Shown: positions 2,157 to 60,600 of the stretch, piece by piece
Layout: every line of letters starts with the position of its first letter
Numbering within the stretch: position 1 is the stretch's first letter
Source of the DNA: an uncultured Clostridia bacterium
GTDB taxonomy: Bacteria > Bacillota > Clostridia > Christensenellales > CAG-917
Assembly: GCA_949283145.1 (NCBI GenBank)
Contig: CASDRL010000009.1
Span: forward strand, 1,283 to 65,282
Direction of reading: 5' to 3'
Length of the DNA: 64,000 nt
Made by a program: the position numbers and the translations under genes
Notes under the pieces: model-generated
Seen by the model: only the letters and a program-made list of their open reading frames with translations
Told to the model about the DNA's origin: nothing
The model's database searches: none

Positions 2157-2578
2157 AAAGACACTCTATCAAGCTGTCCGTTAATACGCTCGAAACAGGA
2201 ACGCATTGGGACACAAGGGGACGGGGTTGAGCTTCTTGCAAGCGAAAATGTTCAAACGCGAACAAAAGTGTTTGCGTTTGAACATTTCTGCCCCGTCCCC
2301 GTTGTCCCGGAGTTTTATATCTTTCCGAATAGGATAACATCGGGTCAGGATACTCTCGCTCGGAGGTTTTGTTAGACCAGCTGCAAAATAGAACCGTCGT
2401 ACTTAAAAACGCCCGTGCAAACTGTTCGTCGTGCTCGGGGGTGTTTGCCCCATGCTTTATAAAAATGCGCCGAGAGGTGCGGGCGAAGCCGCAACGCTCG
2501 GCGCGATATCATATAAAAGCACGGGGTCGAGGGGCATAATGCCCCTCGCGGGGTGCAGGGGCAGCGCCCATGCAGGGG

Positions 2579-30966: not shown

Positions 30967-32775
30967 ATGTATTACGATCCGCTGAGGAACAAGACGCCTT
31001 ACGGCGCTTCCGTCGTGGGCGAGCCCACCGTGTTCGAGTTCACGCTGCCCGCGGACGAGCGTGCGGACAAGGTCACCGTCGTGGTCAGGATGGGTTCCGA
31101 CGAAAGACGTGCGGAGCTCAGATTCGCACGCTTCGACGGGGACGCCTCCGTCTATTCGGGCTCCGTCACGCTGCCCGTTGCAGGGCTGTGGTATTACCGT
31201 TTCGAGAGTGTGTCGGAGGGCAGAGTCACCTATTACGGCAGAGGTTCGGGCGGGTGCGCCGTTTCGGGGGAGTGGTTGCCGGAATGGCAGCTCACAGTAT
31301 CAAAATGTGCCTATAAAACCCCTGATTGGGCAAAAGACGGCGTTGTTTATCAGATCTTTGCCGACCGTTTCGCAAGGTCGGGCGAGGTGAAATTCGCAAA
31401 AAGGGGCAGGCTGCACGCGGATTGGTACGACCTTCCCGACATCGCGGACGAGGGCGGGGAATACCGCGCGGACGACTTCTTCGGTGGCAACGCGCAGGGC
31501 ATCATCGAGAAGCTGGATTATCTGAAGAGCCTGGGGGTCACCGTCATCTATCTTTCGCCCGTCTTCCTCTCATCAAGCAATCACCGCTACGACACCGCGG
31601 ATTATATGAAGGCGGACGAACTATTCGGCGGCGACAAGGGGGTCAAGGCGCTTTGCGCCGCGGCGAAAAAGAAGGGGATCAGGGTCATCCTCGACGGCGT
31701 GTTCAACCACACGGGCGCGGACAGCGTCTATTTCAACAAGTTCGGCAATTTCCCCGGGAAGGGAGCTTATCAGAGCAAGGACTCTCCCTATTACGGCTGG
31801 TACACCTTCTACGAGCACCCGGACAATTATCATTGCTGGTGGGGCTCCACCGTCGTCCCCACCGTCGACAAGAGCGCGGAGGGGTTCCGCAGGCTCATTC
31901 TCGGCAAGGGCGGCGTCATCGACAAGTGGACGAAGGCGGGCGCGGACGGCTGGCGGCTGGACGTCGTGGACGAGCTTCCCACCGATTTCGCGGATGCGCT
32001 CTGCGCCGCCATACGCAAGGCTAAAAATGACGCCCTGATCATCGGCGAGGTGTGGGAAGACGCCTCGGACAAGGTCAGCTACGGCACTTGGAGACCCTAT
32101 TTTATGGGCGATGAGCTGGACGGCGTGATGAACTATCCCTTCCGCCGTGCCATATTTGAGCTCATCATGAAGGGGGACAGAGAGAAATTCCGCGACGCGG
32201 TCACCCTCATCGCGGAGCACTATCCCAAGGAGAGCATGGATGTCTGCTTCACCCTTGTGGGCTCTCACGATACCGTGCGCGCTCTCACCGCGTTTTCGGG
32301 GGCGGAAGCGCCCTATTCCAAGGCGGAACGCCGCACCTTCCGGCTTTCGGAGGAATACTATGCCTTTGCCAAACTGCGCCTGAAGGCGGCGGCGATCCTG
32401 CAATACACCCTTCCCGGCATCCCCTGCGTCTATTACGGCGACGAGGCGGGGGTGCAGGGCTTCGAGGATCCGCTGAACCGCGCGACTTACCCCTGGGGCA
32501 GGCAGGACGACGATCTTCTCGGGCACTACCGCGCCCTCGGTGAACTCCGCCGCAGGAACGCGAACGCTCTCCGCGGCAAACTGCGTTTCCTCGACGACAG
32601 CGAACTTACGGTGTTTGAGCGCGTCTCGGAGGACGGCAGGGATGTGCTCCGCACCTATTACAACCCCTGCTTCCACGCGATCAGCCGCGAGGTGAACGCC
32701 GCGGACGCCTTTACGGGCGAGCACATTGAGACGCTCCGCATCCCGCCGCTTTCCGCATCTGTGGTGTCATATTGA
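30967..32775 (+). CDS. GH13 alpha-glucosidase/neopullulanase-like glycoside hydrolase
   Basis: GH13 regions 'ILDGVFNHTG', 'GWRLDVVDEL', 'IGEVWE' and 'LVGSHDTVR'. Start at ATG 30967 (AAAGGAGG RBS), not the track's 30778, which overlaps glgP. Confidence 0.85.
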   Translation: MYYDPLRNKTPYGASVVGEPTVFEFTLPADERADKVTVVVRMGSDERRAELRFARFDGDASVYSGSVTLPVAGLWYYRFESVSEGRVTYYGRGSGGCAVSGEWLPEWQLTVSKCAYKTPDWAKDGVVYQIFADRFARSGEVKFAKRGRLHADWYDLPDIADEGGEYRADDFFGGNAQGIIEKLDYLKSLGVTVIYLSPVFLSSSNHRYDTADYMKADELFGGDKGVKALCAAAKKKGIRVILDGVFNHTGADSVYFNKFGNFPGKGAYQSKDSPYYGWYTFYEHPDNYHCWWGSTVVPTVDKSAEGFRRLILGKGGVIDKWTKAGADGWRLDVVDELPTDFADALCAAIRKAKNDALIIGEVWEDASDKVSYGTWRPYFMGDELDGVMNYPFRRAIFELIMKGDREKFRDAVTLIAEHYPKESMDVCFTLVGSHDTVRALTAFSGAEAPYSKAERRTFRLSEEYYAFAKLRLKAAAILQYTLPGIPCVYYGDEAGVQGFEDPLNRATYPWGRQDDDLLGHYRALGELRRRNANALRGKLRFLDDSELTVFERVSEDGRDVLRTYYNPCFHAISREVNAADAFTGEHIETLRIPPLSASVVSY

Positions 32776-32799
32776 ACGGATAAACCATCGATTTTGACG

Positions 32800-32830
32800 A
32801 AACCGTCTCCGGGTGCGGAGACGGTTTTGT
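32800..32830 (+). terminator. Intrinsic terminator
   Basis: aaaccgtctcc-gggtgc-ggagacggttt hairpin followed by a T-rich tail. Confidence 0.75.
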
Positions 32831-33062
32831 CTGTTTTCGTTTTTCTTCCTTTCAACCGCCGCAGGGACGTTGCCCTCCGCGAGTCCCGGTCTCGGTCTGC
32901 GGCTCTCACTCCGCCTTGTTGTCTTGCCGCACCGCTTATTACATAAAAATTACAAATGTCGGGAAATCAGCTCTTTACACGGGGCGTGAATTCAAGTTAT
33001 AATATCCTTACTTGAACGGAATCGCGCGTGCGCGTTTTCAAGGACAAGGTAAGGAGGATACT

Positions 33063-35117
33063 ATGGACGACAACATCAACGGCGCGTCTGTCGCCGCCGA
33101 GGACGCCATCGCTCCCGATGCCGTCGAGGAGACCGCAAAGGTCTCGGACGATCGGACGGACGGGGAGGACGGCGAGCCCAAAAAGCCGCTCAAGTTGGAT
33201 TACGCACAGACTTTCAAGGTCGGTTTCGCATTTGCCATCATCATGATCTTCTGGACGGCGTACGACTTCGTCGTGCCGCTGCTCCTCGAGCACGCCTACG
33301 GTCTTTCCAACACCGTCCGCGGCCTCATAATGGGACTGGACAATCTGCTCTCCCTCTTCATGCTCCCCCTCTTCGGCAAGATCTCGGACAACGCCAAGGG
33401 CAAGCTGGTCAAGAAGTGGGGCAGAAGGACGCCTTTCATCGTCATAGGCACCATAGCCTCCGTCATCCTCATGGTCTTTGTCCCCGTCTCCACGCTCGGA
33501 CAGCAGGAGAAGGCGATGGACATCGAGAACGGCTATCTCGCGCAGCTCGACGAGGACGAATTCATGACCGAGCACCTCACCGAGTTCTGGGAGAAGGGCG
33601 GAAACTATGCCGACCGCGATTACATGGCGATTAACAACATCGACAAGGAGCAGTTCCTTGCCATCCGCTATGACGGGAAGTTCACCGCCACCAAGGCGTT
33701 CCTCGGCATGCTGGGTGCCACCACCTACAAGTACGACGGCGTGGAAGTCTCACTCGACACCGAGGTGGATCCCGCGGATCTCGGCTACAAGCTCGCGGAC
33801 TGGAACGGCGACGACGCTCTCACCTATGACGACATCAGGATAAGCAACGCGAACTACGAGAAGTTCGTCGCCGCCGGCATGAACACCTGGATCAGCGATC
33901 AGATCTACGAACAGGTCACCAACACCGCGGAAGGGCACAAGAGCATAGCCATTTATATGGTCATCCTGCTCCTCGTCCTCATTGCGATGGCGACCTTCCG
34001 TTCCCCCGCAGTCGCGCTCATGCCCGACGTCACGCCCAAGCCTCTGCGCTCGCAGGGCAACGCGGTCATCAACCTCTGCGGCGGCGTGGGCGGCGCGATA
34101 GCCTTCCTCATCTACACCGTCGTCCTCTTCGGAGAACGGCTGGAGAACTATGTCATCATCTTCTCGTCGGTGGCGGCGGGCATGTTGCTGCTGCTCGCGG
34201 GCTTCCTCGCCTTCGTGCGTGAGAAGAAGATGGTGGACCGCTGCCACGAGATATGCAAAGAGTACGGCATCGCCGATGAGGACGAAGCCGCTGCGGAGCG
34301 CGCCGAAGATGCGGCTGCCGCGGGCGAGAACGTCCTCGCGGACGAAAGTGCCGCATCCGAAAAAGCAGACATCTCCCCCGAAGTGCTGGAAGCCGCGAAA
34401 GCCAAGACGCGCAAGCTGCGCTCCCCCAAGGAATGGTGGGAGGCAAAGCCCAAGTCCGAACAGGCTAAGTTCATCAGCTTCCTGCTCATCCTCGGCTCCA
34501 TCTTCATGTGGTTCATGGGCTACAACGCCGTCTCTTCCAACCTCTCCGTCTACACCACCAAGGCGCTGAACCTCGACGCGGGCGTCGCGTCCATCATCTC
34601 CGGCGTCAGCATGGGCATCAGCGCGATAGCCTTCATCCCCGTGGGCTACATGGCGGCGAAGCTCGGCAGAAGAAAGACCATCATGATAGGTCTCGCCATG
34701 GCGATCATCAGCTTCCTGCTCATCTTCGCCTTCGTCTATCCCGCGGACAACGCGCGGCCCGCCGTGCTTTTCGCGCTGTTCTACCTCATCGCCGGCTTCG
34801 GGCTCATCATCATCAACGTCAACACCCTGCCCATGGTCGTCGAGCTCTCCACCGACGCCACCGTCGGACAGTACACCGGCTACTACTACGTCGCCACCAT
34901 GTCCGCCCAGGCTGTCACCCCCATGTTCGCCGGTATGGTCATGGACGCCTTCGAAGATAAAGGGCTCTTCATCTACAGTGCCATCTTCATCGCCCTCTCC
35001 ATCATTCTCATGGCATTCGTCAAGCACGGCGACAGCAAACCCATCGGCAAGGGCAAGAAGCTCTCAAAGGAGGAGAAGAGGCAGATACGGCTTGAAGCCC
35101 TCGACAACGCCGACTGA
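33063..35117 (+). CDS. MFS/GPH-type transporter with two large hydrophilic insertions
   Basis: AAGGAGGA RBS. 'LPLFGKISDNAKGKLVKKWGRRTPFIVIG' is the GPH signature, with multiple TMs. About 135 aa (approx. aa 165-300) and about 90 aa (approx. aa 400-490) are non-hydrophobic. Confidence 0.8.
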   Translation: MDDNINGASVAAEDAIAPDAVEETAKVSDDRTDGEDGEPKKPLKLDYAQTFKVGFAFAIIMIFWTAYDFVVPLLLEHAYGLSNTVRGLIMGLDNLLSLFMLPLFGKISDNAKGKLVKKWGRRTPFIVIGTIASVILMVFVPVSTLGQQEKAMDIENGYLAQLDEDEFMTEHLTEFWEKGGNYADRDYMAINNIDKEQFLAIRYDGKFTATKAFLGMLGATTYKYDGVEVSLDTEVDPADLGYKLADWNGDDALTYDDIRISNANYEKFVAAGMNTWISDQIYEQVTNTAEGHKSIAIYMVILLLVLIAMATFRSPAVALMPDVTPKPLRSQGNAVINLCGGVGGAIAFLIYTVVLFGERLENYVIIFSSVAAGMLLLLAGFLAFVREKKMVDRCHEICKEYGIADEDEAAAERAEDAAAAGENVLADESAASEKADISPEVLEAAKAKTRKLRSPKEWWEAKPKSEQAKFISFLLILGSIFMWFMGYNAVSSNLSVYTTKALNLDAGVASIISGVSMGISAIAFIPVGYMAAKLGRRKTIMIGLAMAIISFLLIFAFVYPADNARPAVLFALFYLIAGFGLIIINVNTLPMVVELSTDATVGQYTGYYYVATMSAQAVTPMFAGMVMDAFEDKGLFIYSAIFIALSIILMAFVKHGDSKPIGKGKKLSKEEKRQIRLEALDNAD

Positions 35118-35500
35118 CGGCGCTATTTCGCGAATTGCTGTGTCAAAGGCACCCTTTCCTGCGGGTTACGTACGCCTGAGTACGCGCCCCTTGAAAAGGG
35201 TGCCTTTTCCTTGCACTTCATCGAAATATCGCCGTCAGACCTAAATGCCTCCATTGCGCGAATTGTTGCGCCGTGCAGACCTCTTATGTACAACAAGTAC
35301 ACCGCGAGTCCTGCACGGCGGGGCTTTCGCGCATCTCATCCGAATAAGACGGTTTAGGGTGCCGTTTCTGCTTAGAGCAAGGGAAATGCTCCTCGCGCTA
35401 TTTTGCGTGATGCTGCGTCAAAGCCCCCGTCGTGGATGCTCACGTACGTCTCGGTACGCGCCGGCGCTCAAAGGGCGCTGCCCCTTGAACCCGGGCAGGG
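35117..35500. repeat. Tandem array of 3 copies of the ~110-nt structured repeat family
   Basis: Units start near 35117, 35243 and 35390. Each has an apical cgtac/gtacg-type (or tgtac/gtaca) stem. Outer stems differ but stay complementary: aaaggcaccctttc/gaaaagggtgccttt, then cgccgtgcag/ctgcacggcg. A 21-mer is shared with 1462-1482. Confidence 0.65.
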
Positions 35501-35562
35501 GTCCCACCCCTGCACCCCGGCAGGGATGACATCCCCGCACCCCTTACTTTTAATATAACAAT

Positions 35563-35600
35563 GCGCCGAAGGCTGCGGTTTCACCCTCAGCCTTCGGCGC
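35563..35600. terminator. Bidirectional terminator-like hairpin between convergent genes
   Basis: gcgccgaaggctg-(12-nt loop)-cagccttcggcgc, a 13-bp perfect stem flanked by inverted AT-rich arms (ttaatataac / ttatattataa). Confidence 0.6.
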
Positions 35601-35680
35601 ACTTATATTATAAAAGTATGGGAGCGCGAGGGTGTAACACCCTCGCAGGGGGAGTGGGGGTATAATACCCCCACAAGGGA

Positions 35681-36829
35681 TCAGTCCGTGACCTCGGCGT
35701 AGGAAGTGGCTGACCAGTCGAATCCGGGGCCCTGCTGGGTGTAGGCTTTGCCGACATAGGCTCTGCCTTCCTCTGCCGATGATGCGACGGTGAAGGGCAG
35801 AGAGGTGATGTTGCCCGCAATGCCGTCCACGAGGTTGGTGAGGACATAATCGCGCGCGTTGACATGCTGAGTGGTGAGATCTCCGAGTTCGTTCAGCCCG
35901 TCCAGCGTGACATATGCTGTGTTGGCGATGATCACATCTGTGAGGTAGGCGAGCCCGGGCGCCAATATTTCACTTTCGTATTGGTTGTAAACACCGCCCA
36001 TCGCTCCATACAGGTCGATAAACGCGCCCTTTTCGTTGAGGTAGGCGATCACATCTGCGGTCACTTTGGCGAGCGGCTCATCATATGATTCGCCGATGAT
36101 GTCCATCCTCCCTTTCGTGTAGCCGCCGAAAGCTTCGGAAGGGATATACGGGTCCGCAAGCGAGATGCGGTCGGGCACGCAACCGGGGTTGACGACCAGC
36201 CCTTCGTCGTACATTTTGGCGAGGGTATATGCCGCGGCGAGGACCATCTGCCCTCCGAAGGAGTGTCCCACAAAGTGCAGCTCGGTATTGACGGCGTTCT
36301 TCATCACGGTGGCGATCTCCCGTGCGAATTCGCCCGCGAAGGTGTGCCCGTTCAGCGCTCTTATGGCGTCAGTGTAATTGGAATCGTCGTCGGGAGTTTC
36401 GGTCGCTATCGTCCATATTTCGTCGTCAAGATATTCCAAAAGCCCGGCATAGAGGTGCCAGTCGAAGTAACCGACATTGTAGCCCGCGGCTCTCAGTTCC
36501 GCGGCGTAATCACGCTCGCCGCAAAGCTCTCCCAGATCATCTATCGTGCTCTGCTGGGTGACGAGTTCCTCGGCGGAGAGATCCGCCTTCCAGCCGTGGG
36601 AGTAGACGACGGTGGGTTTTTCGGGGTCGTAGAACTCGACGGGCATATCCGCCTCGGAGAGCATTTTTTCACCTTCGTCGTTGTACCAATACAGCCCGAA
36701 ATCGCGGTCGGGGTCGAGGGTGTAGACGGCGGGTCCGCCGGGATTTTTGTTGCAGGCGGTGAGGATCATTGCGCACGATACGGAAAGGACAAGCACCGCG
36801 CATAAAATGGCCAAAAGTTTCTTTTTCAT
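35681..36829 (-). CDS. Alpha/beta-hydrolase (lipase-like) lipoprotein
   Basis: Lipobox 'MILTACNK'. Nucleophile elbow 'HFVGHSFGGQ' (GxSxG). 'VVYSHGW' oxyanion region. Confidence 0.7.
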   Translation of the reverse strand: MKKKLLAILCAVLVLSVSCAMILTACNKNPGGPAVYTLDPDRDFGLYWYNDEGEKMLSEADMPVEFYDPEKPTVVYSHGWKADLSAEELVTQQSTIDDLGELCGERDYAAELRAAGYNVGYFDWHLYAGLLEYLDDEIWTIATETPDDDSNYTDAIRALNGHTFAGEFAREIATVMKNAVNTELHFVGHSFGGQMVLAAAYTLAKMYDEGLVVNPGCVPDRISLADPYIPSEAFGGYTKGRMDIIGESYDEPLAKVTADVIAYLNEKGAFIDLYGAMGGVYNQYESEILAPGLAYLTDVIIANTAYVTLDGLNELGDLTTQHVNARDYVLTNLVDGIAGNITSLPFTVASSAEEGRAYVGKAYTQQGPGFDWSATSYAEVTD

Positions 36830-44074: not shown

Positions 44075-46978
44075 ATGAAGATCGGCAGCAAGGATTTCAG
44101 ATTGGAAGCCAACGGCAATCTCGACGTGATGGGGCAGAGCAGCAACATCCCGAACGAGCTGCGCCGTTACGACAGGAAGATCGCGCAAAGCGGCAGGCTT
44201 GTCGAGACGCTGGACAGATATGACGATTTCGCTCTGCTCCGCATCCCGTCCAAGGATTACGAGAGCAAGGGCGGGGAATACGGCATAGAGAGGAGCGTGA
44301 TCCACCGCGGCGGCGATGTCATATTGCGCCATCAGCAGGAGGCGGCGAGCAGACTGCTGCGGGAGCTGCGCGGGTTCGGCATGCTCGCGGATGTGGTCGG
44401 CAGCGGCAAGACGTACGAAGCGGGCGTGGTGCTCAGCGAGCTTGCGGTGAGAGGAAAGATGAGGTCTCTTCTGCTCATAGTGCCCGAGCCCATCCTCGAC
44501 GATTGGCAAGAAGTGCTCGAGATGCGTTTCGGGCTGGGCAAGGGCGCGCTTTTCCGCGTGCACGATACGCTTTTTGCGGATGGGCTCGAGATCGAGGACG
44601 GCATCCCGAAGCGCCCCGTCATCGTCAGCACGGAGGATTTCGTCAAGTGGGACGACGCGGCGGCGAACGTTCTGTTTGACGTGATCGTCGTGGACGAAGC
44701 GCACCGTTTTTGCAGCGAAGAGGGGGAATACGCCAGGGCGATGCGCCTGCTTTCCCGCATGATGATGATCAAGAAGGAAGCGGAGCGTCCCTACTGCCTG
44801 CTCCTTTCGGCAACGCCGCACTCCGGCAACCTGGAAAAGATGTTCAGGCTGTGGTATTTCATACGGTGCAGAGGCGGCAATCCCGACGATTTCGAGGAGA
44901 AGGACGACAGCGCGCGCACTGCGGAGTACCGCGCGGAAAAGGAGTATTACAAGAGCCACGTCTGCAACGGCGCCGCCACCGTCATGGAATTCATCAAGAG
45001 GGGGGAAGTGAGCGCGGTGGAGACCCTATCTTCCTGCCGTGACAGGTTCGGAGAATTTCTCGACAAGCGCGGCATCCGCGCAAAGTATTACGGCGGCATG
45101 ACGTACGGCGAGAAGAACGCCGAGGTCAAAACTTTCATGGACGAAAACGAGGATCTCCGCGGCGACATTTATAAGTTCGTTGCGGACGCCTATCACGACG
45201 GCGTGCTCGGCTCGATCATGATCAGAGGCGGAGAGAACGGGGTGAGCAAGACCAAGAACGTCGTCAACATTTTCTTCTTCCCCGTCGGCGGGCAGATGCC
45301 CCTGGGCGGCGTGATCACCGTCCCCGTCGGCAAATCCAGGACGGAGTGCTCCTTCCAGTTCGGCGAGCTTTACACCAAGGGGAGGACCTTCCCCGCCCGG
45401 CTGAACGGAGGGACGGAGGAACTCACGCTGGACGAGATCGCAGAGCTCAGCGTCCCGTCCTCCCTGCGCGGCGACGAAAGGGCGATCGCAGTCAAACACG
45501 AGCGCAACAACATGCTCATCCGTGACATCTTCGGGGGCGCGTTCGGAGCGGGCGACGGCACGGGCGACTTCGATCCGGAGCAGTTCCCCAAGCACGGCAG
45601 TCTCAGATATTATCAGGGTCTGCTCGGCAATTGTCCGCCCTCGGTGGAAAACAGGATCTATCCCGTCTTCGGCAGAAAGGGGATGAGCGACGCGCAGAAG
45701 GAAGATCTCTCCTTCCTGCAAAAACTGGAAACGGCAAAGGCGATCATCAGGAGCAATGCCGGCAAGCGCATCATCGTCTTCTTTGACTATTCTCAGAAGA
45801 GGGGGGCGGTGAGCGAACGCTTCATAAACGAGATCAGGAAGGAGAGTGACATCCGCGACAGGCTGCTCGTCGGCGGGAGCACCGGGCTGCAAAGAGAGTT
45901 CAACAAGGTGCAGGCGGAGTTTTCGGCAAAGGAGGACGCGGTGCTCGTCGTCACCTCTTCCGCGCTGACCGAGGGCGTCAATCTGCAGCAGTGCAACATC
46001 ATCCTCAACTTCCAGGTCACGCCCGATCCCGTCGCGATGGATCAGAGCATAGGCAGAGTGTTCAGGATAGGGCAGAAGAACGACGTGACCATCTACTCCC
46101 TCGCGGACATGGAAAAGCTGGAGGGCTATGCGCTTGCCTATTTCTCGCGCATAGGGCTGATGTCCAGCAGCGGCGGCGACGCAACGATCATCGCGGGCAG
46201 CAACAGCGAACGCATGGTCGCGGTCAGATGCAGCATGTGCGGCAAAGTGTCGCTCTACTCGCAGGAAGAGTATGACAAGATGCAGAAGGATACGGACGAC
46301 CCGCAGAACGGACTGTGGTGTACGGGCACGGCGGCGTGCAGGGCGGAAGACCCCCGCGGCACTCTGATGGCGAAGATCTCCATCTACGACTTCAAGTGCG
46401 ACAGCTGTTCCATGATCATGTCCCGTTCCGCCGACGACGAGGGTTACATCTGCTTCGACGAAGTGCACCAGGGCAAGCTGTGCGTGTTTGCCGACAAGGA
46501 CGGCGGGGACAGGCGCTACTACTGCAACAAGATCTGCGCGATGGCGCACTGCAACAGGTTCAAACCTCCCAAAGGGAAGAAGTGTCCCGCGCTGGAGCTC
46601 TACAAAAAGGACAGGACGGCGAATCCGACCACTCTTGCCGCGGAATGCGCCAAGTGCAACGACCCGGACTGCCCGCCCAAGTGCAGATATCAGGACGGTC
46701 CCGAGGGGATCGCGGCATGCTCGGTCTGCAACGAGTCGCTCTGTTCGCCTAAACCCGGCGTCTACGAATTCGACGACAAGTGGGAGATGCGCTGTCCAAA
46801 GTGCGGCGGCACCATCCGCCCCATCGAGGCGAGCACGTTTGCGACTTACATCCACGCGCTGTGGGATTTCCGCTACGATGACGGCTCCACGTTCTGCAAG
46901 CAGCTGAGCGCCGAGGCAGATAAGGTGGCGGAGGTCAAGACCATACTCGACATGCACGGCAGGGAGAAACAGGCATGA
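44075..46978 (+). CDS. SNF2-family (SF2) ATPase with a C-terminal multi-zinc-ribbon tail
   Basis: 967 aa. Motif I 'VVGSGKTYEAG', motif II 'VVDEAHRF', motif III 'LLSATPHSGN'. C-lobe 'TSSALTEGVNLQQCNIILNF...DQSIGRVFRIGQKNDV'. At least 5 CxxC pairs in the last ~250 aa. Confidence 0.9.
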   Translation: MKIGSKDFRLEANGNLDVMGQSSNIPNELRRYDRKIAQSGRLVETLDRYDDFALLRIPSKDYESKGGEYGIERSVIHRGGDVILRHQQEAASRLLRELRGFGMLADVVGSGKTYEAGVVLSELAVRGKMRSLLLIVPEPILDDWQEVLEMRFGLGKGALFRVHDTLFADGLEIEDGIPKRPVIVSTEDFVKWDDAAANVLFDVIVVDEAHRFCSEEGEYARAMRLLSRMMMIKKEAERPYCLLLSATPHSGNLEKMFRLWYFIRCRGGNPDDFEEKDDSARTAEYRAEKEYYKSHVCNGAATVMEFIKRGEVSAVETLSSCRDRFGEFLDKRGIRAKYYGGMTYGEKNAEVKTFMDENEDLRGDIYKFVADAYHDGVLGSIMIRGGENGVSKTKNVVNIFFFPVGGQMPLGGVITVPVGKSRTECSFQFGELYTKGRTFPARLNGGTEELTLDEIAELSVPSSLRGDERAIAVKHERNNMLIRDIFGGAFGAGDGTGDFDPEQFPKHGSLRYYQGLLGNCPPSVENRIYPVFGRKGMSDAQKEDLSFLQKLETAKAIIRSNAGKRIIVFFDYSQKRGAVSERFINEIRKESDIRDRLLVGGSTGLQREFNKVQAEFSAKEDAVLVVTSSALTEGVNLQQCNIILNFQVTPDPVAMDQSIGRVFRIGQKNDVTIYSLADMEKLEGYALAYFSRIGLMSSSGGDATIIAGSNSERMVAVRCSMCGKVSLYSQEEYDKMQKDTDDPQNGLWCTGTAACRAEDPRGTLMAKISIYDFKCDSCSMIMSRSADDEGYICFDEVHQGKLCVFADKDGGDRRYYCNKICAMAHCNRFKPPKGKKCPALELYKKDRTANPTTLAAECAKCNDPDCPPKCRYQDGPEGIAACSVCNESLCSPKPGVYEFDDKWEMRCPKCGGTIRPIEASTFATYIHALWDFRYDDGSTFCKQLSAEADKVAEVKTILDMHGREKQA

Positions 46979-48682: not shown

Positions 48683-51600
48683 GTGAACAGATCTACCGAT
48701 TGGTCCAGAGCGACCACACGCAATTTGCAGAGCAAGAAGGGCATACTGTTCGCGAGCGTTGCCGTGGCTGCGGTGGCGGACATCGCGGCGCTGGCGGTGC
48801 TCCTTTATGAGGGCGCGGCGTGGATGTTCGTGCTGATCTCCGCGCTGATGCTCGCGGCGGATCTTGCGTTCCTGCTGCTTATTGCTGTTTCGAATTACAG
48901 GTTTAAGTACGCGCGCGCACAGTGGGTCGTCTACATACTGCTGACTCTTCTGCTGACGGCGGCGGCTCTTGTCGTAAACTTCGCTTTCGGCAGCACGTCC
49001 ATGACGCTGCTTGCCGCGGCCGTCATCGCGGCGGTGCATGTCGTCGGCGTGATCGTGATATTCTTCGCCGCGCTGCGTGCCGCGGGCACGAGACGGAGCC
49101 CGGAGCTCCCCGGCATGGTGGTCGCGCTCGTCGTCCTGCTCATATGCACCGCCGCATACGCAGGCTTTACCATCGAAGGCGGCTATTTCGGTCAGGGCGA
49201 GGACAACGTCGTGCGTGCGGTGATCTTCGAAGAGGACGGCGACGGCTATGCGGTGACGGGAGTCAGCGAAGGCAGGGGTAACACCGTCGTCATACCCGAG
49301 AAGATCAACGGCAAAGAGGTCACGAGTTTCAGCGCGGAGCTGTTCGCGGACGACAGCATTGAAAAGATCGTCGTCGAAAGCGAGGAATATATCCCCGTGG
49401 ACGGGCTCTCCGCCTCCCGGCTTTATGCGGGCTCGGTGAAGATGGAAGTGCACAAAAACAACATCGACCTCTACAAAGCGGCGTTGTACGACACCCGTTC
49501 TTCGTGGTCGAGAGGGTTTGCCGCCATCGCCAACGCCATGACCCCCATAGGGCTTGACGAGGGCGAAGTGTACATCACTTTCGCCTACGACGCGAGCGGG
49601 CTTTCGGAGGCGAGCGGCGATTATATCCCCACCTGGTTCGGCAGCGCGGGCGACAGGGCGGACATCTCCGAGATGGTCGGGGACATCCCGTATGCGGATC
49701 ACAACGACGTGAATGACGTGAACGATCTGCATCATTGCTATCTTTACAACGGCCGCATGATCATGCAGGCAAGAGACTCCGAGACGGGCGCACTCTTTAC
49801 GGGCGGCAGAGTTAACGGGAGCATGAGCCTGGATGTGACCTTCGAGAGAGTGTTCAGAGTGTCTCTCGGCGCGGGGAACGACACCAAGTATATCGCTCCG
49901 TCCGATTTTGCCGCCGCGGTCATCAACGGCGTGAGACAGAACTACTCCTATGTCACCGCGCCCATGGCGAATGATCTTGCGGCGCGGTTCCCGGAGCGTG
50001 AAGGTTTCGATCTTGCGTGGGATCTCGGCTTTGCGCTCGGCGGCATCTCCGACGACATTTCGGCGTCGCTTTCGACCGACAAGGCGCAGAGCAGTGTATC
50101 CTCTTTTGTGATGACTCCGGTCTGGACGATGCATTCGCCCGAGGTGAGCATCCTCGGCAGCGGAAACGTGACGAGCCTCACTTACGGCGATCCGCTCACC
50201 CTCGAGGCGGAAGTCATCGCGCCGTTTGACGGCTGCGAGTTCGTCTATGAGTGGAAGGACGCGGCAGACGAAGTGGTGTCTCAGGGCGAGACATATTCCG
50301 CTCTTCTCCCCCTGCCTGCGGACAGCGGCACCTATTCCCTCACCGTTACGGCAAAGGCGGATTCCACCTCCCTCACTTCCGAGGGCAGTGCGACAAGGCG
50401 TGTGAGCATAAGCAAACGGCAGCTCGAGCTGGAATGGAGCGTGCCGACGCAGGACAGCGGCAATGTGTACACCGGCTATGACTTCACTGTCAGCGCGTCT
50501 CCCGTGAATGCGGTCTCCGGCGACGATATCACCGTGACGGCGGATCCCGGCACGGTGCGGAATGCGGGCAATTACACCGCAAGAGCGACGATCGACGCGG
50601 AGTCCGGCGAAAAATATCGGCTTGCGGCAGGGACGGCGAGCATGGCTTTCTCCATTCTGCCGCACAGCGTGGACGCCCCCGAATGGGGGAGTGAGACGAG
50701 CTTTGTCTATGACGGAGAGTCGCATGCGCCCACTGCCGCGGTGCAGGGCGTCGGACCAGACGGCGCGCTGACCGTCACCGTTCAAGGCGGCGCGGTAAAT
50801 GCGGGCAGCTATACCGCGACGGCTGCGATCACGGGCGAAAACGCAGGCAACTATGTCATCGTCGACAAAACGACGGAGTTCGAGATCACGGCGCGTCCCG
50901 TTACCGTCGAGTGGACGGGGCAGACCTTCACCTACAACGGCGGCGTGCAGCATCCGACCGTGCAGTCCGTGAACGGAGAAGTGGAAGGGGAGGAGAGCGA
51001 TGTCATCGCGCTCATCACCTATTCCTATACGGATTGCGTGAACGCGGGCACGCATACAGTCACGGCACAGATCGCGGACGGCGAAAACTACAAGTTCGAA
51101 GCAGAGCAGGCAAAAGAGTTCGAGATCGACAGGATGGCGCTCGAGATCAACGCGCGCAACGCCGAAAAAGTGTACGACGGCAAGACATACGGTTTCACCA
51201 CTGCGGACATTTCCGTCGGAACGCTCGCGGACGGCGACAGCCTCTTCGAGGTCGTGAGTTCCGTGACTGCGGGCGGCGCGGGTGCGGCTGCCGTCGATGC
51301 GGGCAGCACGGAGTTCGAGCTCACGCTCGGTCACGGCGAAAAGTATGAAAACTATTCCGTCAGCGGCGATCTGACCGCCACGCTCAAGATCAACAAGCGC
51401 ACGGTCACGATGACTTGGGAGAGCACTTCCTTCGTCTACGACGGCACCGCCCGTCATCCGAAAGCGGCGTCGGTCGGAGGTGCGGTCTCCAGTGAGGAAG
51501 AGAGCGTGCGCGGGTCGATCGTGTACGGCGGCGATACGAGCGCGACAAAAGCCGGCAGCTACACCGTCACGGCAGAACTCCCCGATGACAGCAACTACAC

Positions 51601-52894
51601 CTTCTCCGCCGCGCAGAGGAAGACGTTCGCGATCGCGAAGCGCCCCGTCACCGTCGTGTGGACGGAGCAGACCTTCACCTACAATGGCGGCGTGCAGCAT
51701 CCGACCGTGCAATCCGTGGACGGAGAAGTGGAAGGGGAGGAGAGCACCGTCATCGGGCTCATCACCTATCTCGGTACGGCGGACTGCGTGAATGCGGGCA
51801 CGCATACGGTCACGGCGCAGATCGCGGAGGGCAACTATACATTCTCCGTCCCGCAGAGCAAGACGTTCGAGATCGAGAAACTGGCGGTCACCGTCGAGTG
51901 GGCGGAGCAGACCTTCACCTACAACGGCGAAGTGCAGCACCCCCGTGTGCAGTCCGTGAACGGCGAAGTGGAAGGGGAGGAGAGCATCGTCATCGGGCTC
52001 ATCACCTATTCCTACACGGATTGCAAGAACGCGGGCACGCATACGGTCACGGCGCAGATCGCGGAGGGCAACTATACCTTCTCCGCCCCGCAGAGCAAGA
52101 CGTTCGAGATCGCGAAACTTGCGGTCACCGTCGTGTGGGAAGAGCAGACTTTCATCTACAACGGCGAAGTGCAGTATCCGACCGTACAGTCCGTGAACGG
52201 CGCTGTCTCCGACGAGGAAGATATTGTGCTCGGTGCGCTGATCTACGGCGGCGACACCGCGGCAACGAACGCAGGCGGCTATACCGTGAATGTCACCCTG
52301 CCCGAGGAGAGCAACTACAAGTTCGACGCGGAGCAGTCAAAAGAGTTCGCGATCGCTCAGCGCGGCGTGACGCTCGTGTGGGAAGAGTCGAGTTTCGTCT
52401 ATGACGGCAACGCGCATCATCCGAGCGTGGTGTCTGTGGAAAACGCCGCCCCAGGTGAAGAGGCTGTATTGCTCGGAAAGATAGAGTATTCGGGCAATAT
52501 TGAAGCGACCGACGCGGGCGGATATGCCGTCACGGCAAGCATCGCCGACGACAATTACACGATCACGGGCGGCGGTGAAAAGGCATTTACCATCAGCGCC
52601 GCACCGGTGTCCGTATCCTGGTCCGGCACGGAATTCGAAGAGGACGAAACCGCTCATTTTCCGGAGTTCATCTGTGATTTTGAAGGTATAAAGGTCGAGT
52701 TTGAGTATTATGAGGTGATCGACGGCGAGCGCGGCGAGAAGCTGGAAAGCGCGCCGTCGGCAGCCGGAAGTTATATCGTGGTCGCGGCGATAGAAGGCGC
52801 GGAGAATTTCATCGTGGACGGGGAGACCGAGTGCGCATTCACGATTGTCGCGGCGCAGGATGACGCGGAGCAAAACGGAGGGGAAAGCATATGA
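48683..52894 (+). CDS. Giant membrane protein: N-terminal 5-TM bundle plus ~1200-aa repeat-rich (LRR/Listeria-Bacteroides-repeat/MBG-like Ig) ectodomain
   Basis: 1403 aa, GTG start with an AGGAGGA RBS. Five hydrophobic helices lie within aa ~20-165. About 9-10 repeats of ~79 aa follow, of the form 'V.W....F.Y.G..H.P......(E/D)E.....I.Y.G......AG.YTV.A......NY.F.....K.F.I'. Confidence 0.85.
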   Translation: MNRSTDWSRATTRNLQSKKGILFASVAVAAVADIAALAVLLYEGAAWMFVLISALMLAADLAFLLLIAVSNYRFKYARAQWVVYILLTLLLTAAALVVNFAFGSTSMTLLAAAVIAAVHVVGVIVIFFAALRAAGTRRSPELPGMVVALVVLLICTAAYAGFTIEGGYFGQGEDNVVRAVIFEEDGDGYAVTGVSEGRGNTVVIPEKINGKEVTSFSAELFADDSIEKIVVESEEYIPVDGLSASRLYAGSVKMEVHKNNIDLYKAALYDTRSSWSRGFAAIANAMTPIGLDEGEVYITFAYDASGLSEASGDYIPTWFGSAGDRADISEMVGDIPYADHNDVNDVNDLHHCYLYNGRMIMQARDSETGALFTGGRVNGSMSLDVTFERVFRVSLGAGNDTKYIAPSDFAAAVINGVRQNYSYVTAPMANDLAARFPEREGFDLAWDLGFALGGISDDISASLSTDKAQSSVSSFVMTPVWTMHSPEVSILGSGNVTSLTYGDPLTLEAEVIAPFDGCEFVYEWKDAADEVVSQGETYSALLPLPADSGTYSLTVTAKADSTSLTSEGSATRRVSISKRQLELEWSVPTQDSGNVYTGYDFTVSASPVNAVSGDDITVTADPGTVRNAGNYTARATIDAESGEKYRLAAGTASMAFSILPHSVDAPEWGSETSFVYDGESHAPTAAVQGVGPDGALTVTVQGGAVNAGSYTATAAITGENAGNYVIVDKTTEFEITARPVTVEWTGQTFTYNGGVQHPTVQSVNGEVEGEESDVIALITYSYTDCVNAGTHTVTAQIADGENYKFEAEQAKEFEIDRMALEINARNAEKVYDGKTYGFTTADISVGTLADGDSLFEVVSSVTAGGAGAAAVDAGSTEFELTLGHGEKYENYSVSGDLTATLKINKRTVTMTWESTSFVYDGTARHPKAASVGGAVSSEEESVRGSIVYGGDTSATKAGSYTVTAELPDDSNYTFSAAQRKTFAIAKRPVTVVWTEQTFTYNGGVQHPTVQSVDGEVEGEESTVIGLITYLGTADCVNAGTHTVTAQIAEGNYTFSVPQSKTFEIEKLAVTVEWAEQTFTYNGEVQHPRVQSVNGEVEGEESIVIGLITYSYTDCKNAGTHTVTAQIAEGNYTFSAPQSKTFEIAKLAVTVVWEEQTFIYNGEVQYPTVQSVNGAVSDEEDIVLGALIYGGDTAATNAGGYTVNVTLPEESNYKFDAEQSKEFAIAQRGVTLVWEESSFVYDGNAHHPSVVSVENAAPGEEAVLLGKIEYSGNIEATDAGGYAVTASIADDNYTITGGGEKAFTISAAPVSVSWSGTEFEEDETAHFPEFICDFEGIKVEFEYYEVIDGERGEKLESAPSAAGSYIVVAAIEGAENFIVDGETECAFTIVAAQDDAEQNGGESI
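50900..52360 (+). repeat. Near-identical 237-240-bp intragenic tandem repeats
   Basis: Units start at 50900, 51647, 51887 and 52124, so the last three are spaced 240 and 237 bp. They share long identical runs such as cagaccttcacctacaa.ggcg and aa.gcgggcacgcata..gtcacggc.cagatcgcgga. Confidence 0.8.
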
Positions 52895-57685: not shown

Positions 57686-60600
57686 ATGAGTATCATCGAT
57701 TACATTTCCGAACTGCTGCACCTGGACAACGTGTCCGACACAAAACTCATGGACCTTTGGGCGGGTTACGGCAGGAACACCTTCTATCTGACGCAGAGCG
57801 GAAAGGACGCGGCAGGGTCGATCGCGGAGGGAGTGATGCGCACAATGCTGCTGCGCCGCGGCAAGCCGGGCAATACCGCTTTGGTCGGGAGCAGCAAACG
57901 CCCGGATGCGGAGCAAAACCTCGTGGGAGGGAACAAATTCGACTGGTACGAAGAGATAGAGTACAATAGTGCCGAAAAGGTAAAGGATCCCGGACGGCTC
58001 AATTCCTTCATCGACGACGCCTATAAAGCCATCAATCTCAAAGGCAACAACCCCGTTTATCTCACGGTGGGCGCTCTTGAGTGGAAGATCGCCACGAAAT
58101 ACGGGGCACAGACCGTGCTCACGCCGCTGCTCATCTTCCCGGTGAGACTGGTGCGTTACGACGAACTCAGCCCCGTGTGCATCGAGTTCGTGGACGACGA
58201 CGCGCACTTCAATCCCTGTCTCTATCACCGCTTGCGCAGAGACCGCGGAGAGGCGCTGGCGAGGAGTTTCCCCCATCCCAACGGCAACGAGCCCGATCAG
58301 GATTTCGACGACGCGCTCGATCTCACCAGGTTCATGCCGAAAACGGGAGAATTCGACTTTTCTTATTTCGACGCGGTGGAGAGGTTCGTTTCCGGACGTG
58401 CGGCGGGTTCCGACGGCAGCACCGTCTTTGCCTTCCGCAAGGACGTCGTGGCTCTCGTCGCATACAATCACGATGAGATGTGCATGTACTTCGACATCAT
58501 GCGCAACATCGATCTCATCGAAAATCATCCCCTCGTGGCAAGGCTATTCAAGAAGGGCAAGGCGCCCGCCCTCTCCGCAAAACGGAATGACATGAGGTTG
58601 GTACTTGCCGCCGACAGTGTGCAGCAGGACATCATCTCACGCGTCGTCAGCGGTGAGTCCATGGTCATCAAGGGACCTCCCGGCACGGGCAAGACGCTCA
58701 CCATCGCCAACATGATCGGCGCGCTCATGGACGAAGGGAAAAACGTCCTGTTCGCGTCCGAAAAGCTCTCCGCGCTGAGTGAAGTTTATGCAAAGCTCCC
58801 CGCGGAACTCAGAAAGTTCGCCCTCCTTCTGGAAGGGGAGACCGAGGCAAAAGCGGCAAAGATCAGCCGCAAAGAGATCGTTACGGATCTCCGTCGCGTC
58901 GTGGACGAGAAGAAGAAATTCCGGCTCTCCGACACAGCCGTTAAGGAGCACGGAGAGGCGGAATCTTCGCTGGAAGCGGCGTTTAACGCTCTGAATGCAT
59001 ATGTAAACTTCATGTTTGAGCAAAAAGGCAACATCGGGCTGGGGCTCTACGCCATCCTCGACGCCAGCATGAAGAACTCCCATCTGCCGTATGCCGAACT
59101 CACCGCTTCGCCCGCGAGCTTGCTCGACGTGAAAGCGGAGGAATACTATAACATGAAGCTCCGCGTTGCGGAAGCGGACGTGATGTTCGACCGCATGACC
59201 GACGACGGCAGGCACGTCATCGAGAAGTGTCCGTGGTACGGCGTCGGGAAGGACACGCAGACGGAGACCGCGCTGCGTGACTATGCCGTCCTGGCAAAGG
59301 AAGTGAGCAAGCTGCTCGCCGTTGCGGACGGGAAACTTTCGGCTTATCCGGGGCTCTCTTTCGACGGGGTGTCCCTCTCTGCGCTGCGCTGGCTGTTCGC
59401 CGGCGAATACCGCGCGGAAGAGGTCGAGGCTGCCGCCGAGGCGGTCGAGAAAGAGCGACGCGCTCCGACGGGCGCCGTCGAGAATGTGAAAAATGCGCAG
59501 AAAAAGTATGTCGAGGCGAAAGCCGCGGTCCCTGCCGGGTTCGTCTTCCGCGAAGGGCAGGACGCGCGCTCGCTTGCGGACGACCTCGATATACAGCTGA
59601 CGGCGGATGAGTTCCCGGTGGACACGGCGATGCTGGTGTGCGGGCACGAGAGGCTCTTCCTCGGCACGCGCGGCACGGGGCTGACTTCCGCAGAAGCGGA
59701 GCAGCTGCTCACCTATGTGGATTGCCTGGACACCAATGCCGACAGGGCGGGCGGGCTGTGCATGGAGATCAGGAAGGCGTTCTCCGAGGAAGCCGAAAAG
59801 GCGTGCGGCAAGCTGCTCGCGGAGGCGGCGGAGAAACTCGCGCCCTACATGGACACAGATGCGAAAAAGCCCGGCGCGTTCGATTTCGCCGCCAGATCCC
59901 TCTTCAAAAAACTCGCCGCGGAAAGCTATGTCAAGGGCATCTCTTTTGCCGACATCGTGGCGGCGGCAGCGGCGTACGGCGAATTGAAAGCGCTGGACAC
60001 CGAGAGGATCGGGATCATAAACCACATCAACCAATGCTTCGGAAAGGCACTTGACGATGACGAAACGAAGTGTTTAAGTGTCGTTTTGAAATATTGTCGC
60101 GAAAAAGGCAAGGATGTCAGACGCATAGTCGAAGAGCTCATGCTCTCCAAGGACGCGCTGACGGCAGCGATCGCGGCATTCGAAAAGATGCCCGACGGGG
60201 TCACCGTCGGAGACGTCAAAGCCGCGCTCCGTCTCGAGACGGAGACGGACAGACTGCATGCGGCGCTTGCCGCGATGGGCAGGGCTTACGCCTTCGCCGG
60301 CGAGGTGACGCGGGCGGACGCGCCGCGCGTCGCGGCGACTGTCTGCGCGCTCTTCGAGATCTGTTCCTCTCCCTATTTCGAATACAAGAGCAAGGACGAG
60401 GCGGCAAACGTTCTGCTTTCCTTCCGCGCTCCGGAGGCGGAGGAGATCATAGTCTGCATCGGCAGGCTCGCGACGGCGTTCGGAAGGAAGCATTTCCGCA
60501 ACCATTACACCGTGCTGCCCCTCGAAAAGTGCACCCTCGGCGATTGGCGCTTTTTCGTCCAGGAGTCGTCTTCGAGGAATGTGCTCGGCGCCGTTCAGAA

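Follow-up and report, generated by a model that had tools for sequence, protein, structure and literature searches.

A nested-hairpin repeat family at the 3' ends of genes in uncultured gut Clostridia

Several described bacterial repeats resemble the hairpin family treated here, which was found in a 64-kb stretch of an uncultured Clostridia genome (contig CASDRL010000009.1; the whole stretch is called the window, and coordinates are window positions). Repetitive extragenic palindromes (REPs) are present in high copy number and lie mostly downstream of genes, between convergent or co-directional open reading frames (ORFs) (Di Nocera et al., 2013, PMC3733652). By definition a REP is a short palindrome of 20-40 bp with a GTAG or CGTC terminal tag, and Firmicutes are not among the phyla named as hosts of GTAG repeats (PMC3733652). 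In REPINs the hairpin is maintained by compensatory change (Bertels and Rainey, 2011, PMC3116915). ERIC/IRU, YPAL and Correia/NEMIS elements are co-transcribed with their neighbours, form long RNA hairpins, influence the upstream mRNA in an orientation-dependent manner, and vary between strains (Delihas, 2008, PMC2229807). The family described here is built of units of 124-129 nt, each a nested hairpin in which the outer stem (17 bp) is hypervariable, the inner stem (7-13 bp) is variable and the apex, CGTAC-N4-6-GTACG, is near-invariant. REPs that lie near stop codons reportedly affect translation and mRNA decay. Mycobacterial interspersed repetitive units (MIRUs) are tandem, head-to-tail and operon-oriented intergenic units, whose ends overlap the upstream stop codon and whose copy number varies between strains; they do not form long hairpins, and small ORFs within them couple translation. 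The attC sites of integrons are imperfect palindromes of 57-141 nt that conserve structure over sequence, lie 3' of an ORF in a fixed orientation, often overlap its stop codon, and act as folded single strands.

The units share with REP and BIME repeats a high copy number, an extragenic position mainly downstream of ORFs, clusters that are mosaics of subtypes, variation between strains, and a compensated hairpin. An earlier reading of the window from its letters alone (the sequence-only reading) had offered a REP/BIME-like element, a small-RNA family or a module derived from a miniature inverted-repeat transposable element (MITE) as candidates. The first of these fits best, given the mosaic subtype arrays, the 3' extragenic site, and the presence/absence and swapping between strains. 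Unlike a REP, however, each unit is a single nested hairpin rather than a 20-40-nt palindrome or a pair of them, and no conserved GTAG or CGTC tag is seen in the alignments of 24 or 53 copies; a GTAG/CGTC REP identity was rejected on the unit size and the missing tag. Unlike REP/BIME clusters, the arrays are head-to-tail and not alternating, the apex is invariant and the base hypervariable, and the stop codon lies within the stem. Compared with a REPIN, the two arms of a unit are mutually inverted by construction, neither holds a REP-like palindrome, and conservation is at the apex, not in the arms. ERIC, YPAL and Correia MITEs, which are imperfect palindromes of 100-170 nt, have the same length class and strain variation, but they also have conserved terminal inverted repeats and TA-type target duplications and occur in both orientations; in the units the termini vary most, no duplication is seen, and about 88% of loci share one orientation anchored on the stop codon. 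Presence/absence polymorphism at orthologous sites is as in bacterial MITEs, whereas the complementary termini of the units differ from copy to copy. A MITE origin is only loosely right: the presence/absence pattern agrees with it, but there is no target-site duplication and the terminal bases are unconserved.

With MIRUs the units have in common the head-to-tail arrays and the overlap with the stop codon, but they are non-coding palindromes. Like attC sites, they conserve structure with free sequence, lie in a fixed orientation just after an ORF and overlap its stop codon. An attC identity was rejected nevertheless, because the R boxes and the cassette context are absent. The R''/R' boxes (RYYYAAC/GTTRRRY) do not appear in the alignments, and GTT and AAC, where present, are oppositely arranged (5' GTTTAAG...CTTAAAC 3'). 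There is no intI and there are no cassette arrays; the housekeeping genes are syntenic with or without a unit, the tandem arrays are free of ORFs, and the apex rather than the base is conserved. The inner domain of a unit, an A-tract, a GC-rich stem and a T-tract, has the form of an intrinsic terminator, as seen in the plain terminators of the source genome (e.g. 32800-32850) and at empty orthologous sites. Unlike a terminator, a unit has a conserved 40-nt structured domain in place of the loop, a short T-tract and an outer stem beyond it, and a separate terminator-like palindrome follows the array. A weak model hit at 32770-32857, on the stop codon of an amylase gene, is an ordinary terminator and not a family member.

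Distribution, anatomy and covariation

The exact core motif, used as the seed of a scan of GTDB representative genomes, occurs at 28 loci in about 10 genomes, all of them metagenome-assembled genomes (MAGs) of uncultured Clostridia from gut samples. RUG12826 has nine of the loci, HGM11451 and BRZ_MP bin75 five each, and Ca. Limadaptatus stercoravium three; Ca. Borkfalkia faecavium and others are also hosts. A covariance model (R1) was built from 24 complete units and run on the window and the core-containing loci, where it finds 53 copies (its E-values are rough), mostly in head-to-tail, one-strand arrays of one to three units. The arrays combine different subtypes and are not local duplications. 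Divergent members occur in relatives of lower GC content (0.41-0.45), and the same architecture is seen in independent assemblies from many studies and hosts. Several MAG contigs terminate inside arrays, and the repeats are therefore a probable cause of contig breaks in metagenomes. The MAG and metagenome loci compared with the window are labeled by L-numbers (L001, L027, L109 etc.).

An Rfam search, which the sequence-only reading had suggested, matched nothing to the units: Rfam 15 gives no hits on the whole window at gathering thresholds, and at E <= 10 the sole overlap with either window locus is a spurious microRNA model at 16 bits. BLASTn of unit A, the first unit of the window array, finds no match among annotated plasmids and phages, and the exact core has no matches in IMG/VR viral contigs. 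A description of the hairpin family was found neither in Rfam nor in a limited, keyword-based literature search, and the family is apparently undescribed. Members of the host clade are common gut inhabitants of humans and animals and are almost uncultured, and within these limited searches the family appears to be its first REP/ERIC/MIRU-like repeat system.

The 5' part of a unit consists, in order, of the outer-stem arm (about 10 variable nt and the box CTATTYGG), CGAAT, a 3-nt co-varying step, the unpaired box TKYGTCA and the A-tract. The middle is made up of the inner-stem arm (7-13 variable nt), the core CTGCGRGTTACGTACG-N4-6-GTACGCGCCYCTTG and the inner-stem 3' arm. These are followed by the T-tract (CTTTTCCTTG, CTTTTTCGCG or TTTTTTTCC), a box ending in TTCATCCRAATAT, and the outer 3' arm. 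The conserved boxes ATTYGGCGA... and ...CATCCRAAT flank the interior, the GC-rich stem between A-tract and T-tract, of which there are at least six subtypes (T1-T6). The T-tract has three to seven T; some subtypes have CTTTTCCTTG or TTTTTTTCC after the inner stem, and others TTT only. The hairpin extends past the T-tract, since the 17-bp outer stem encloses the whole unit. The sequence-only reading missed this stem and put the unit at about 110 nt instead of about 125-129 nt. Unit ends are hypervariable (e.g. CTGACGGCG, TTAAACCGCG, TTTCGCCGCC), the terminal 9-11 nt differing between copies. All members of the 24-unit alignment have the apical 5-bp stem CGTAC/GTACG, whose loop bases vary freely, and the T6 subtype has a compensated apex, TGTAC/GTACA.

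The stems co-vary, as the sequence-only reading had proposed from four copies. In an alignment of the 24 units made blind to structure (MAFFT), with consensus pairs from RNAalifold, there are 35 pairs, of which 26 are changed on both sides, and 93.9% of the cells are paired vs 71.9% in shuffles. Doubly compensated cells number 192, against 57 +/- 7 in column shuffles (none of 500 reaches the observed value) and 28-54 when the partners are slid by one to three columns. The outer stem, the most variable part, is compensated at 12 of its 13 pairs in this alignment. Compensation is almost wholly from Watson-Crick to Watson-Crick, with G-U in 9 of 839 cells. Over 51 copies, the mismatches are 52 G-T, 37 A-C and 119 transversion; in the 29 best-kept units G-T falls to 9 vs 14 A-C, and eight units are perfect (35/35). 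Because G-U or G-T is not in excess on either strand, neither strand bears the wobble signature expected of a stem kept only as RNA. What is constrained looks like perfect complementarity of the DNA type; alternatively, the copies are young. The family is a clean natural case of hairpin co-evolution, with Watson-Crick changes only, compensated indels, and pairing that reaches the last sense codon, and it could help to distinguish selection on folding from arm-to-arm gene conversion.

Placement and turnover of the units

The window holds four copies, all on the + strand, two of them intact (1368-1495 and 35112-35240) and two decayed (35241-35357 and 35387-35503). They are the copies pointed out by the sequence-only reading, one at 1376-1490 and three in tandem; the three tandem copies are indeed present, but only the first (unit A) is intact, units B and C being decayed. 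The motif GTAC-N3-8-GTAC has five matches in the window vs 0.98 expected, at 1426, 35170, 35288, 35444 and one unrelated site. The 20-mer TTCGCGCATCTCATCCGAAT is identical at 1463-1482 and 35326-35345 (two matches vs 0.01 expected), and the T preceding it is common to both, so the shared 21-nt tail is exact at 1462-1482 and 35325-35345. The stems quoted in that reading are complementary as well: cctctc/gagagg (1405-1411/1452-1458), aaaggcaccc.../...gggtgccttt (35145-35157/35195-35207) and cgccgtgcag/ctgcacggcg (35269-35283/35306-35320). In the following list the base positions of the hairpins are taken from the sequence listing, as the outermost pair of the minimum-free-energy fold is too noisy (the flanks pair spuriously).

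1368-1495, +: intact unit of subtype T2, 16 nt 3' of the TAA of a class-III aminotransferase gene (62-1351); model R1 120.6 bits, E 2.5e-26
1370-1386, +: its outer-stem 5' arm, CCGACGCCGTCATTCGG; 17/17 paired with 1477-1493
1405-1458, +: its inner domain; stem tcctctc/gagaggg (1405-1411/1452-1458) around the core CTGCGAGTTACGTACG-AAAA-GTACGCGCCTCTTG
1425-1439, +: its apical stem-loop, from sequence, fold and core motif match
1477-1493, +: its outer-stem 3' arm, CCGAATGACGGCGTCGG; 100% complementary to 1370-1386
1510-1528, +: relic 3' arm ATCCAAATATCGCCCTCGG of another, lost unit (outer-stem subtype CCGAGGGCG); matches 3' arms in L112, L114 and the transketolase locus
35112-35240, +: unit A, intact, subtype T1, first of the array; model R1 137.5 bits, 35/35 model pairs Watson-Crick
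35114-35130, +: unit A outer-stem 5' arm, CTGACGGCGCTATTTCG; 94% complementary to 35222-35238
35115-35117, +: TGA stop of an MFS transporter gene (33012-35117; Pfam MFS_1), inside the unit A outer-stem 5' arm, which begins at 35114
35145-35207, +: unit A inner domain; 13-bp stem (35145-35157/35195-35207) around the core CTGCGGGTTACGTACG-CCTGA-GTACGCGCCCCTTG, then the T-tract CTTTTCCTTG
35169-35184, +: unit A apical stem-loop, from sequence, inverted-repeat search and fold
35222-35238, +: unit A outer-stem 3' arm, CGAAATATCGCCGTCAG; partner of 35114-35130
35241-35357, +: unit B, decayed, subtype T6; apex TGTAC-AACAA-GTACA, stem 35269-35283/35306-35320, outer stem absent
35387-35503, +: unit C, degenerate, subtype T3; only the leader and the apex ACGTACG-TCTCG-GTACGCG remain, the 3' half being lost
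35541-35622, no strand: palindrome with 38-nt arms between convergent genes, not a family member; inverted repeat, 82% complementary

As RNA, the unit at 1368-1495 folds at -69.7 kcal/mol (z -7.2) and unit A at -64.6 kcal/mol (z -8.1). The minus strand of both folds as well as the plus strand or better; the unpaired boxes are strand-specific, and the model scores 37-39 bits on the reverse strand vs 137-139 on the forward one. The inner stem and T-tract of unit A score as a terminator-like tail. Unit B has a 9-nt gap in its leader relative to intact copies, a fold z of -5.9 and a model score of just 15.2 bits with filters off; fuller T6 copies are found at orthologous positions in L029 and L030, and another T6 copy lies at L014:5909-6036. 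Unit C scores 15.9-16 bits and folds no better than shuffles (z -0.27), and intact T3 copies are at L008:5157, L028:1657, L030 and L114. Spurious ORFs at 34978-35244 and 35245-35529 overlap the array units.

Both window loci are at the 3' ends of convergent genes, as had been stated before. The terminator-like palindrome at 35541-35622 is probably the shared terminator of the convergent genes, and the position of the array upstream of it places the array inside the 3' untranslated region (UTR) of the MFS gene. The palindrome itself (GCGCCGAAGGCTG...CAGCCTTCGGCGC, AT-flanked) resembles an inverted module at about 2449-2561, between another convergent pair, with 71% identity over 118 nt; the two may represent a recurring bidirectional terminator module.

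Nearly all units are found at the 3' end of a housekeeping gene of the same orientation, in the stretch that separates its stop codon from the true terminator. Genes in the MAG loci were predicted with a codon-usage model trained on Pfam-confirmed window genes, and independence of loci was decided from protein orthology. At about 23 of 26 independent loci (about 88%) the first unit is directly 3' of a co-oriented gene (binomial p ~4e-5). At most co-oriented loci a TGA or TAA stop is found at model positions 2-6, as the first paired triplet of the outer stem. Units of the TGA type end in ...TCAG, and those of the TAA type in ...TTTAA or ...TTTTA, so that TGA/TAA is mirrored by TCA/TTA at the 3' end; the stop codon is base-paired, because the 3' end of the unit complements its type. 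In 14 of 17 independent loci a pyrimidine precedes the stop codon, and in none is this base G; among 135 background genes the pyrimidine share is 44%. Units that start with CCGA, without a stop, lie 14-21 nt 3' of the stop codon, and the unit at 1368-1495 is among them. The host genes code for GAPDH, EF-P, pyruvate kinase, SpoIIE, BirA, fucose isomerase, an ABC transporter, aminotransferases and MFS transporters. In L010 and L021 the unit occupies the spacer from the stop codon to the ribosome-binding site of the next gene. The anchoring to stop codons and the near-obligate co-orientation with the upstream gene had been overlooked earlier, as had the outer stem and the decay of units B and C. 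Positioned on the stop codons of core metabolic and translation genes, the units may set the 3'-end stability or termination of many highly expressed mRNAs.

The exceptions in orientation are L019, L084:912-1037 and L001. Two antisense units at L019:3605-3855 lie between co-directional genes and end 10 nt from the downstream start codon. The single antisense unit at L084:912-1037 lies 27 nt after a stop codon, and the units at L001:214-785, in a genome of higher GC content, are in mixed orientation. The unit strand is the G-rich strand in 24 of 29 loci, where the genes are also co-oriented, and replication-directed and gene-directed orientation are inseparable there. L019 is the one informative locus in this regard, its units opposing both gene direction and GC skew.

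A promoter scan finds no promoter-like site upstream of or inside the units. The reverse complement of TGTCAA is TTGACA, and a promoter was considered, but there is no -10 box at usable spacing. CCGA-type units are separated from the stop codon by a small hairpin whose loop is of the TTTTAA type (CGTTCC TTTTAA CGGAAC, or GGTAAC...GTTACC): at 1352-1369 in the window and at about 4291-4310 in L109-L114, whose transketolase locus has it at about 1237-1256. In L112 it has a compensated change, GTCCC/GGGAC.

The family turns over rapidly, by gain, loss, replacement of whole units and exchange of interiors, with breakpoints in the conserved boxes. At the MFS locus, 80 metagenomic orthologues were retrieved and scanned with the model. 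The arrays are [T1,T6,T3] in the window, [T3,T6] in L030, [T6] with a chimeric leader in L029, and [T1,T4] in L027; orthologues in L031, L032, L034, L039 and L084 have yet other units on the stop codon. A unit is absent in L035 (79% amino-acid identity), L036-L038 and about 60 more distant orthologues, where the same ...D-stop C-terminus is followed by a plain terminator. The first units of the window and L027 are orthologous T1 copies at least five compensated double changes apart, and a 1-nt deletion in the inner stem is matched by a deletion in the opposite arm. Such compensated 1-nt indels between copies exclude coding. In L027 the pairing reaches into the last sense codon (GATTAAACCGCG/CGCGGTTTAATC). 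Filled and empty sites differ by no direct repeat, and the flanks, 5' YTRA... and ...TYAR 3', are inverted.

At the EF-P locus, proteins that are 98% identical are followed by first units of different subtype, with the breakpoint at base three of the final sense codon (GTT TAA GCGCGC... vs GTC TGA GGGCAC...). Strains of the same species with a 100% identical aminotransferase have T2 at the 1368-1495 position in the window, L110, L111 and L113. L114 has T3 there, with a truncated leader and the minimal terminator hairpin AAAGCCCCGTCTTTTGACGGGGCTTTCG behind it. In L109 and L112 no more than a 5' arm and its leader is present, of a different subtype in each, and this joins the same minimal hairpin directly at GTCAAAG. 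The intergenic length at this locus ranges from 332 to 1279 nt across these strains. The transketolase locus, which lies just upstream of the window, has the same outer stems in every strain, but the interior between the boxes ATTTGGCG and CATCCAAAT is T2 in three strains and T3 in two. Because loci vary between strains whose flanking proteins are identical, they lend themselves directly to strain typing.

The stop-proximal unit stays intact while distal units decay. The mean number of Watson-Crick pairs in the outer stem is 11.9 of 13 in first units and 8.2 of 13 in later ones, and a second, small REP-like element frequently breaks up the later ones.

Competing explanations

The units are dispersed mosaic palindromic repeats of gut Clostridia near Ca. 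Borkfalkia and Ca. Limadaptatus, analogous to REP/BIME/REPIN and ERIC elements but of a separate lineage, and are probably non-autonomous and propagated at the DNA level. DNA-level processes and dispensability appear to dominate because compensation is Watson-Crick only and includes indels, distal copies decay, strains can do without a unit, and interiors are swapped. The units would then be non-autonomous selfish DNA, whose spread and homogenisation at the DNA level would come from recombination or gene conversion between copies, or from a putative protein that recognises the invariant apical stem as a hairpin or cruciform. The Watson-Crick-only pattern would follow if the arms of an extruded hairpin were corrected against each other, or if perfect master copies constantly reseeded the family. 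The units would persist only where they are harmless or useful, namely co-transcribed in a 3' UTR, where an RNA hairpin starting from the stop codon might hold up 3' exonucleases or serve as a module resembling a terminator, in the manner of REP and ERIC elements.

Several observations weigh against this account. The exact stop-codon site in one orientation is not obviously explained by simple selfish spread, since the palindromic ends supply YTRA either way and YTRA is too common to single out true stops. The strict position and orientation, the pairing of the stop and last sense codons, and the preservation of the first unit argue for selection at the level of RNA or linked to translation, or for a targeting mechanism. 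The classical hallmarks of a mobile element are missing, there being no target-site duplication and no conservation of the terminal 9-11 nt. A transposase or recombinase linked to the family was not found: there is none among the window proteins, and tBLASTn with IS200 TnpA and RAYT queries gave no match in 670 kb, which is a weak test. Co-transcription, and with it any effect on mRNA, is something we infer. Seeding the genome scan with the core motif also biases the sample to conserved apices; however, of about 25 copies found by the model only, all but two keep CGTAC/GTACG (one has TGTAC/GTACA, and L026:5879 is broken by an inserted element), which makes apex conservation more than an ascertainment effect. 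A gene between units at L004:2737-3750, suspected to code for a transposase, turned out to be a diacylglycerol kinase gene.

In a rival account, the family would be primarily a cis-acting 3'-UTR RNA module selected by the host, which spreads because it is useful and not because it is selfish. The terminating ribosome would melt the outer stem, the inner stem and U-tract would terminate or attenuate transcription or block 3'-5' exonucleases, and the invariant apex would be bound by a dedicated RNA-binding protein or RNase. The co-orientation at about 88% of loci, the stop codon embedded in the stem with its TGA/TAA difference mirrored by TCA/TTA, and the perfect stop-proximal unit with decayed distal ones all agree with this, as do the strand-specific unpaired boxes (37-39 vs 137-139 bits), the A-tract and T-tract around the inner stem as in local terminators, the position of the array upstream of a real terminator, and the filling of the stop-to-ribosome-binding-site spacer in L010 and L021. 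The pairing statistics do not: the sense strand is not enriched in G-U, and compensation is Watson-Crick only. Moreover, the loop bases are free and the stem is invariant, the reverse of most RNA-protein sites, and termination at the T-tract would leave the outer 3' arm untranscribed, yet outer pairing is the best maintained. Close relatives and same-species strains lack a unit at the same gene, and three cases (L019, L084:912-1037 and L001) are anti-oriented or mixed. A host-selected RNA module is possible, though we rather doubt it. Quite unlikely, in our judgment, is that the units are structure-specific recombination or transposition sites in single-stranded DNA, like attC, IS200/IS605 or REP-RAYT hairpins, where an enzyme would read the folded strand (its invariant apex and extrahelical bases) and insert units beside YTRA, which means at stop codons of the strand that replication exposes. 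Stems that conserve structure and not sequence, with Watson-Crick changes only, would be expected of such sites. The same can be said of whole-unit replacement with a breakpoint at the last sense codon and stop, cassette-like swapping of interiors between fixed boxes, the enrichment of Y before the stop, the strong preference for one strand (G-rich in 24/29 loci), and the insertion of the second small REP-like element at one fixed 5'-arm position. But there are no attC boxes, integrase or cassette arrays, the host genes are syntenic core genes, and no GTAG or CGTC tag is present. A tBLASTn search with IS200 TnpA and RAYT queries detected no HUH transposase in 670 kb of sequence (a weak test). 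YTRA alone is too frequent to explain the targeting of true stops, and the L019 units oppose gene direction and GC skew.

Two further alternatives are rejected. The hairpins are stable, the core is conserved and a T-tract follows the inner stem, as would suit genes for trans-acting small RNAs, one of the identities suggested from sequence alone, but the units begin on the preceding stop codon, have no promoter-like site upstream or inside, no Rfam match and no G-U signature, and their copies decay and are dispensable between strains; this origin is very unlikely. The chance that the family is a fortuitous resemblance, an assembly artefact or a set of coding repeats is practically negligible: only the spurious ORFs at 34978-35244 and 35245-35529 speak for it, and against it are the same architecture in independent assemblies, motif counts far above shuffles, and indels compensated in the opposite arm. 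A bolder proposal, which we consider unlikely, is that the units are structure-recognised elements of a new class, directed to sites where translation stops, in one of two versions. A putative hairpin-specific enzyme may insert the single-stranded DNA hairpin and exchange its interior, which would be what attC/IntI or REP/RAYT is elsewhere, now in a Firmicute and with the logic reversed (invariant apex, free base). Alternatively, the units may form a genome-wide 3'-UTR regulon: a single protein would recognise the invariant CGTAC/GTACG apex on dozens of housekeeping mRNAs (those for GAPDH, EF-P and pyruvate kinase among them) and couple translation termination to mRNA fate.

Neighbouring repeats and other features

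The second, small REP-like family has members of about 45 nt, consisting of CGGGG(T/C)CCC, a variable compensated stem-loop and GGGG(C/T)A(G/A/T), and shares the strand of the big units. Insertions recur at a single fixed position in the 5' arm of the big units, just before ATTGGCGA, and one lies inside an inner stem (L017). Its sites are L006:~607, L013:3630, L017:~6578, L026:5644/5858/5928, L027:3251, L031:4068/4302, L032:3449/3496 and L034:3412.

Downstream of the unit at 1368-1495, positions 1496-2578 form a 1.1-kb gene-free patchwork of interspersed repeats between convergent genes, and the same repeats adjoin hairpin arrays in many MAG loci. Inverted copies within it are 1544-1592/2122-2170 and 1559-1638/2324-2403. 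It includes a non-coding element of about 290 nt at about 1618-1920 (+), which has 74-81% identity across several species and is also found at L022:4880-5165, L027:3456-3757, L031:3430-3668 (-) and L032:4044-4233. Rfam has no match for the element, which contains several conserved hairpins (12 of 68 predicted pairs are compensated) and ends like a terminator. The sequence at its 3' end, GGGGGAAACCCGCAGGAAGGGGG, equals the core of the hairpin units, CCCTT(T)CCTGCGGGTT, read as the reverse complement. The element may be a structured RNA of a new type, or it may belong with the hairpin family, either as a larger relative or as an antisense partner. A near-perfect palindrome with 19-nt arms (AAATGTTCAAACGCGAACA / TGTTTGCGTTTGAACATTT) is at 2246-2287, in an AT-rich patch (GC 0.38) of the gene-free region. 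Double palindromes rich in GGGG/CCCC, at 35479-35552 (-), 35612-35682 (+) and 2514-2588 (+), match the Rfam Clostridiales-2 RNA (RF02937) below threshold, at 20-21.5 bits vs a gathering score of 58.6.

Farther along the window, 42024-62299 holds large genes: a SNF2/ResIII helicase (44075-46978), a 1403-aa MBG-domain protein (48683-52894), five ORFs without a Pfam hit and, at 57686-62299, a 1537-aa protein with DUF4011, an AAA_11/AAA_12 helicase and a REase_MTES_1575 nuclease domain. This block is possibly a defence island.

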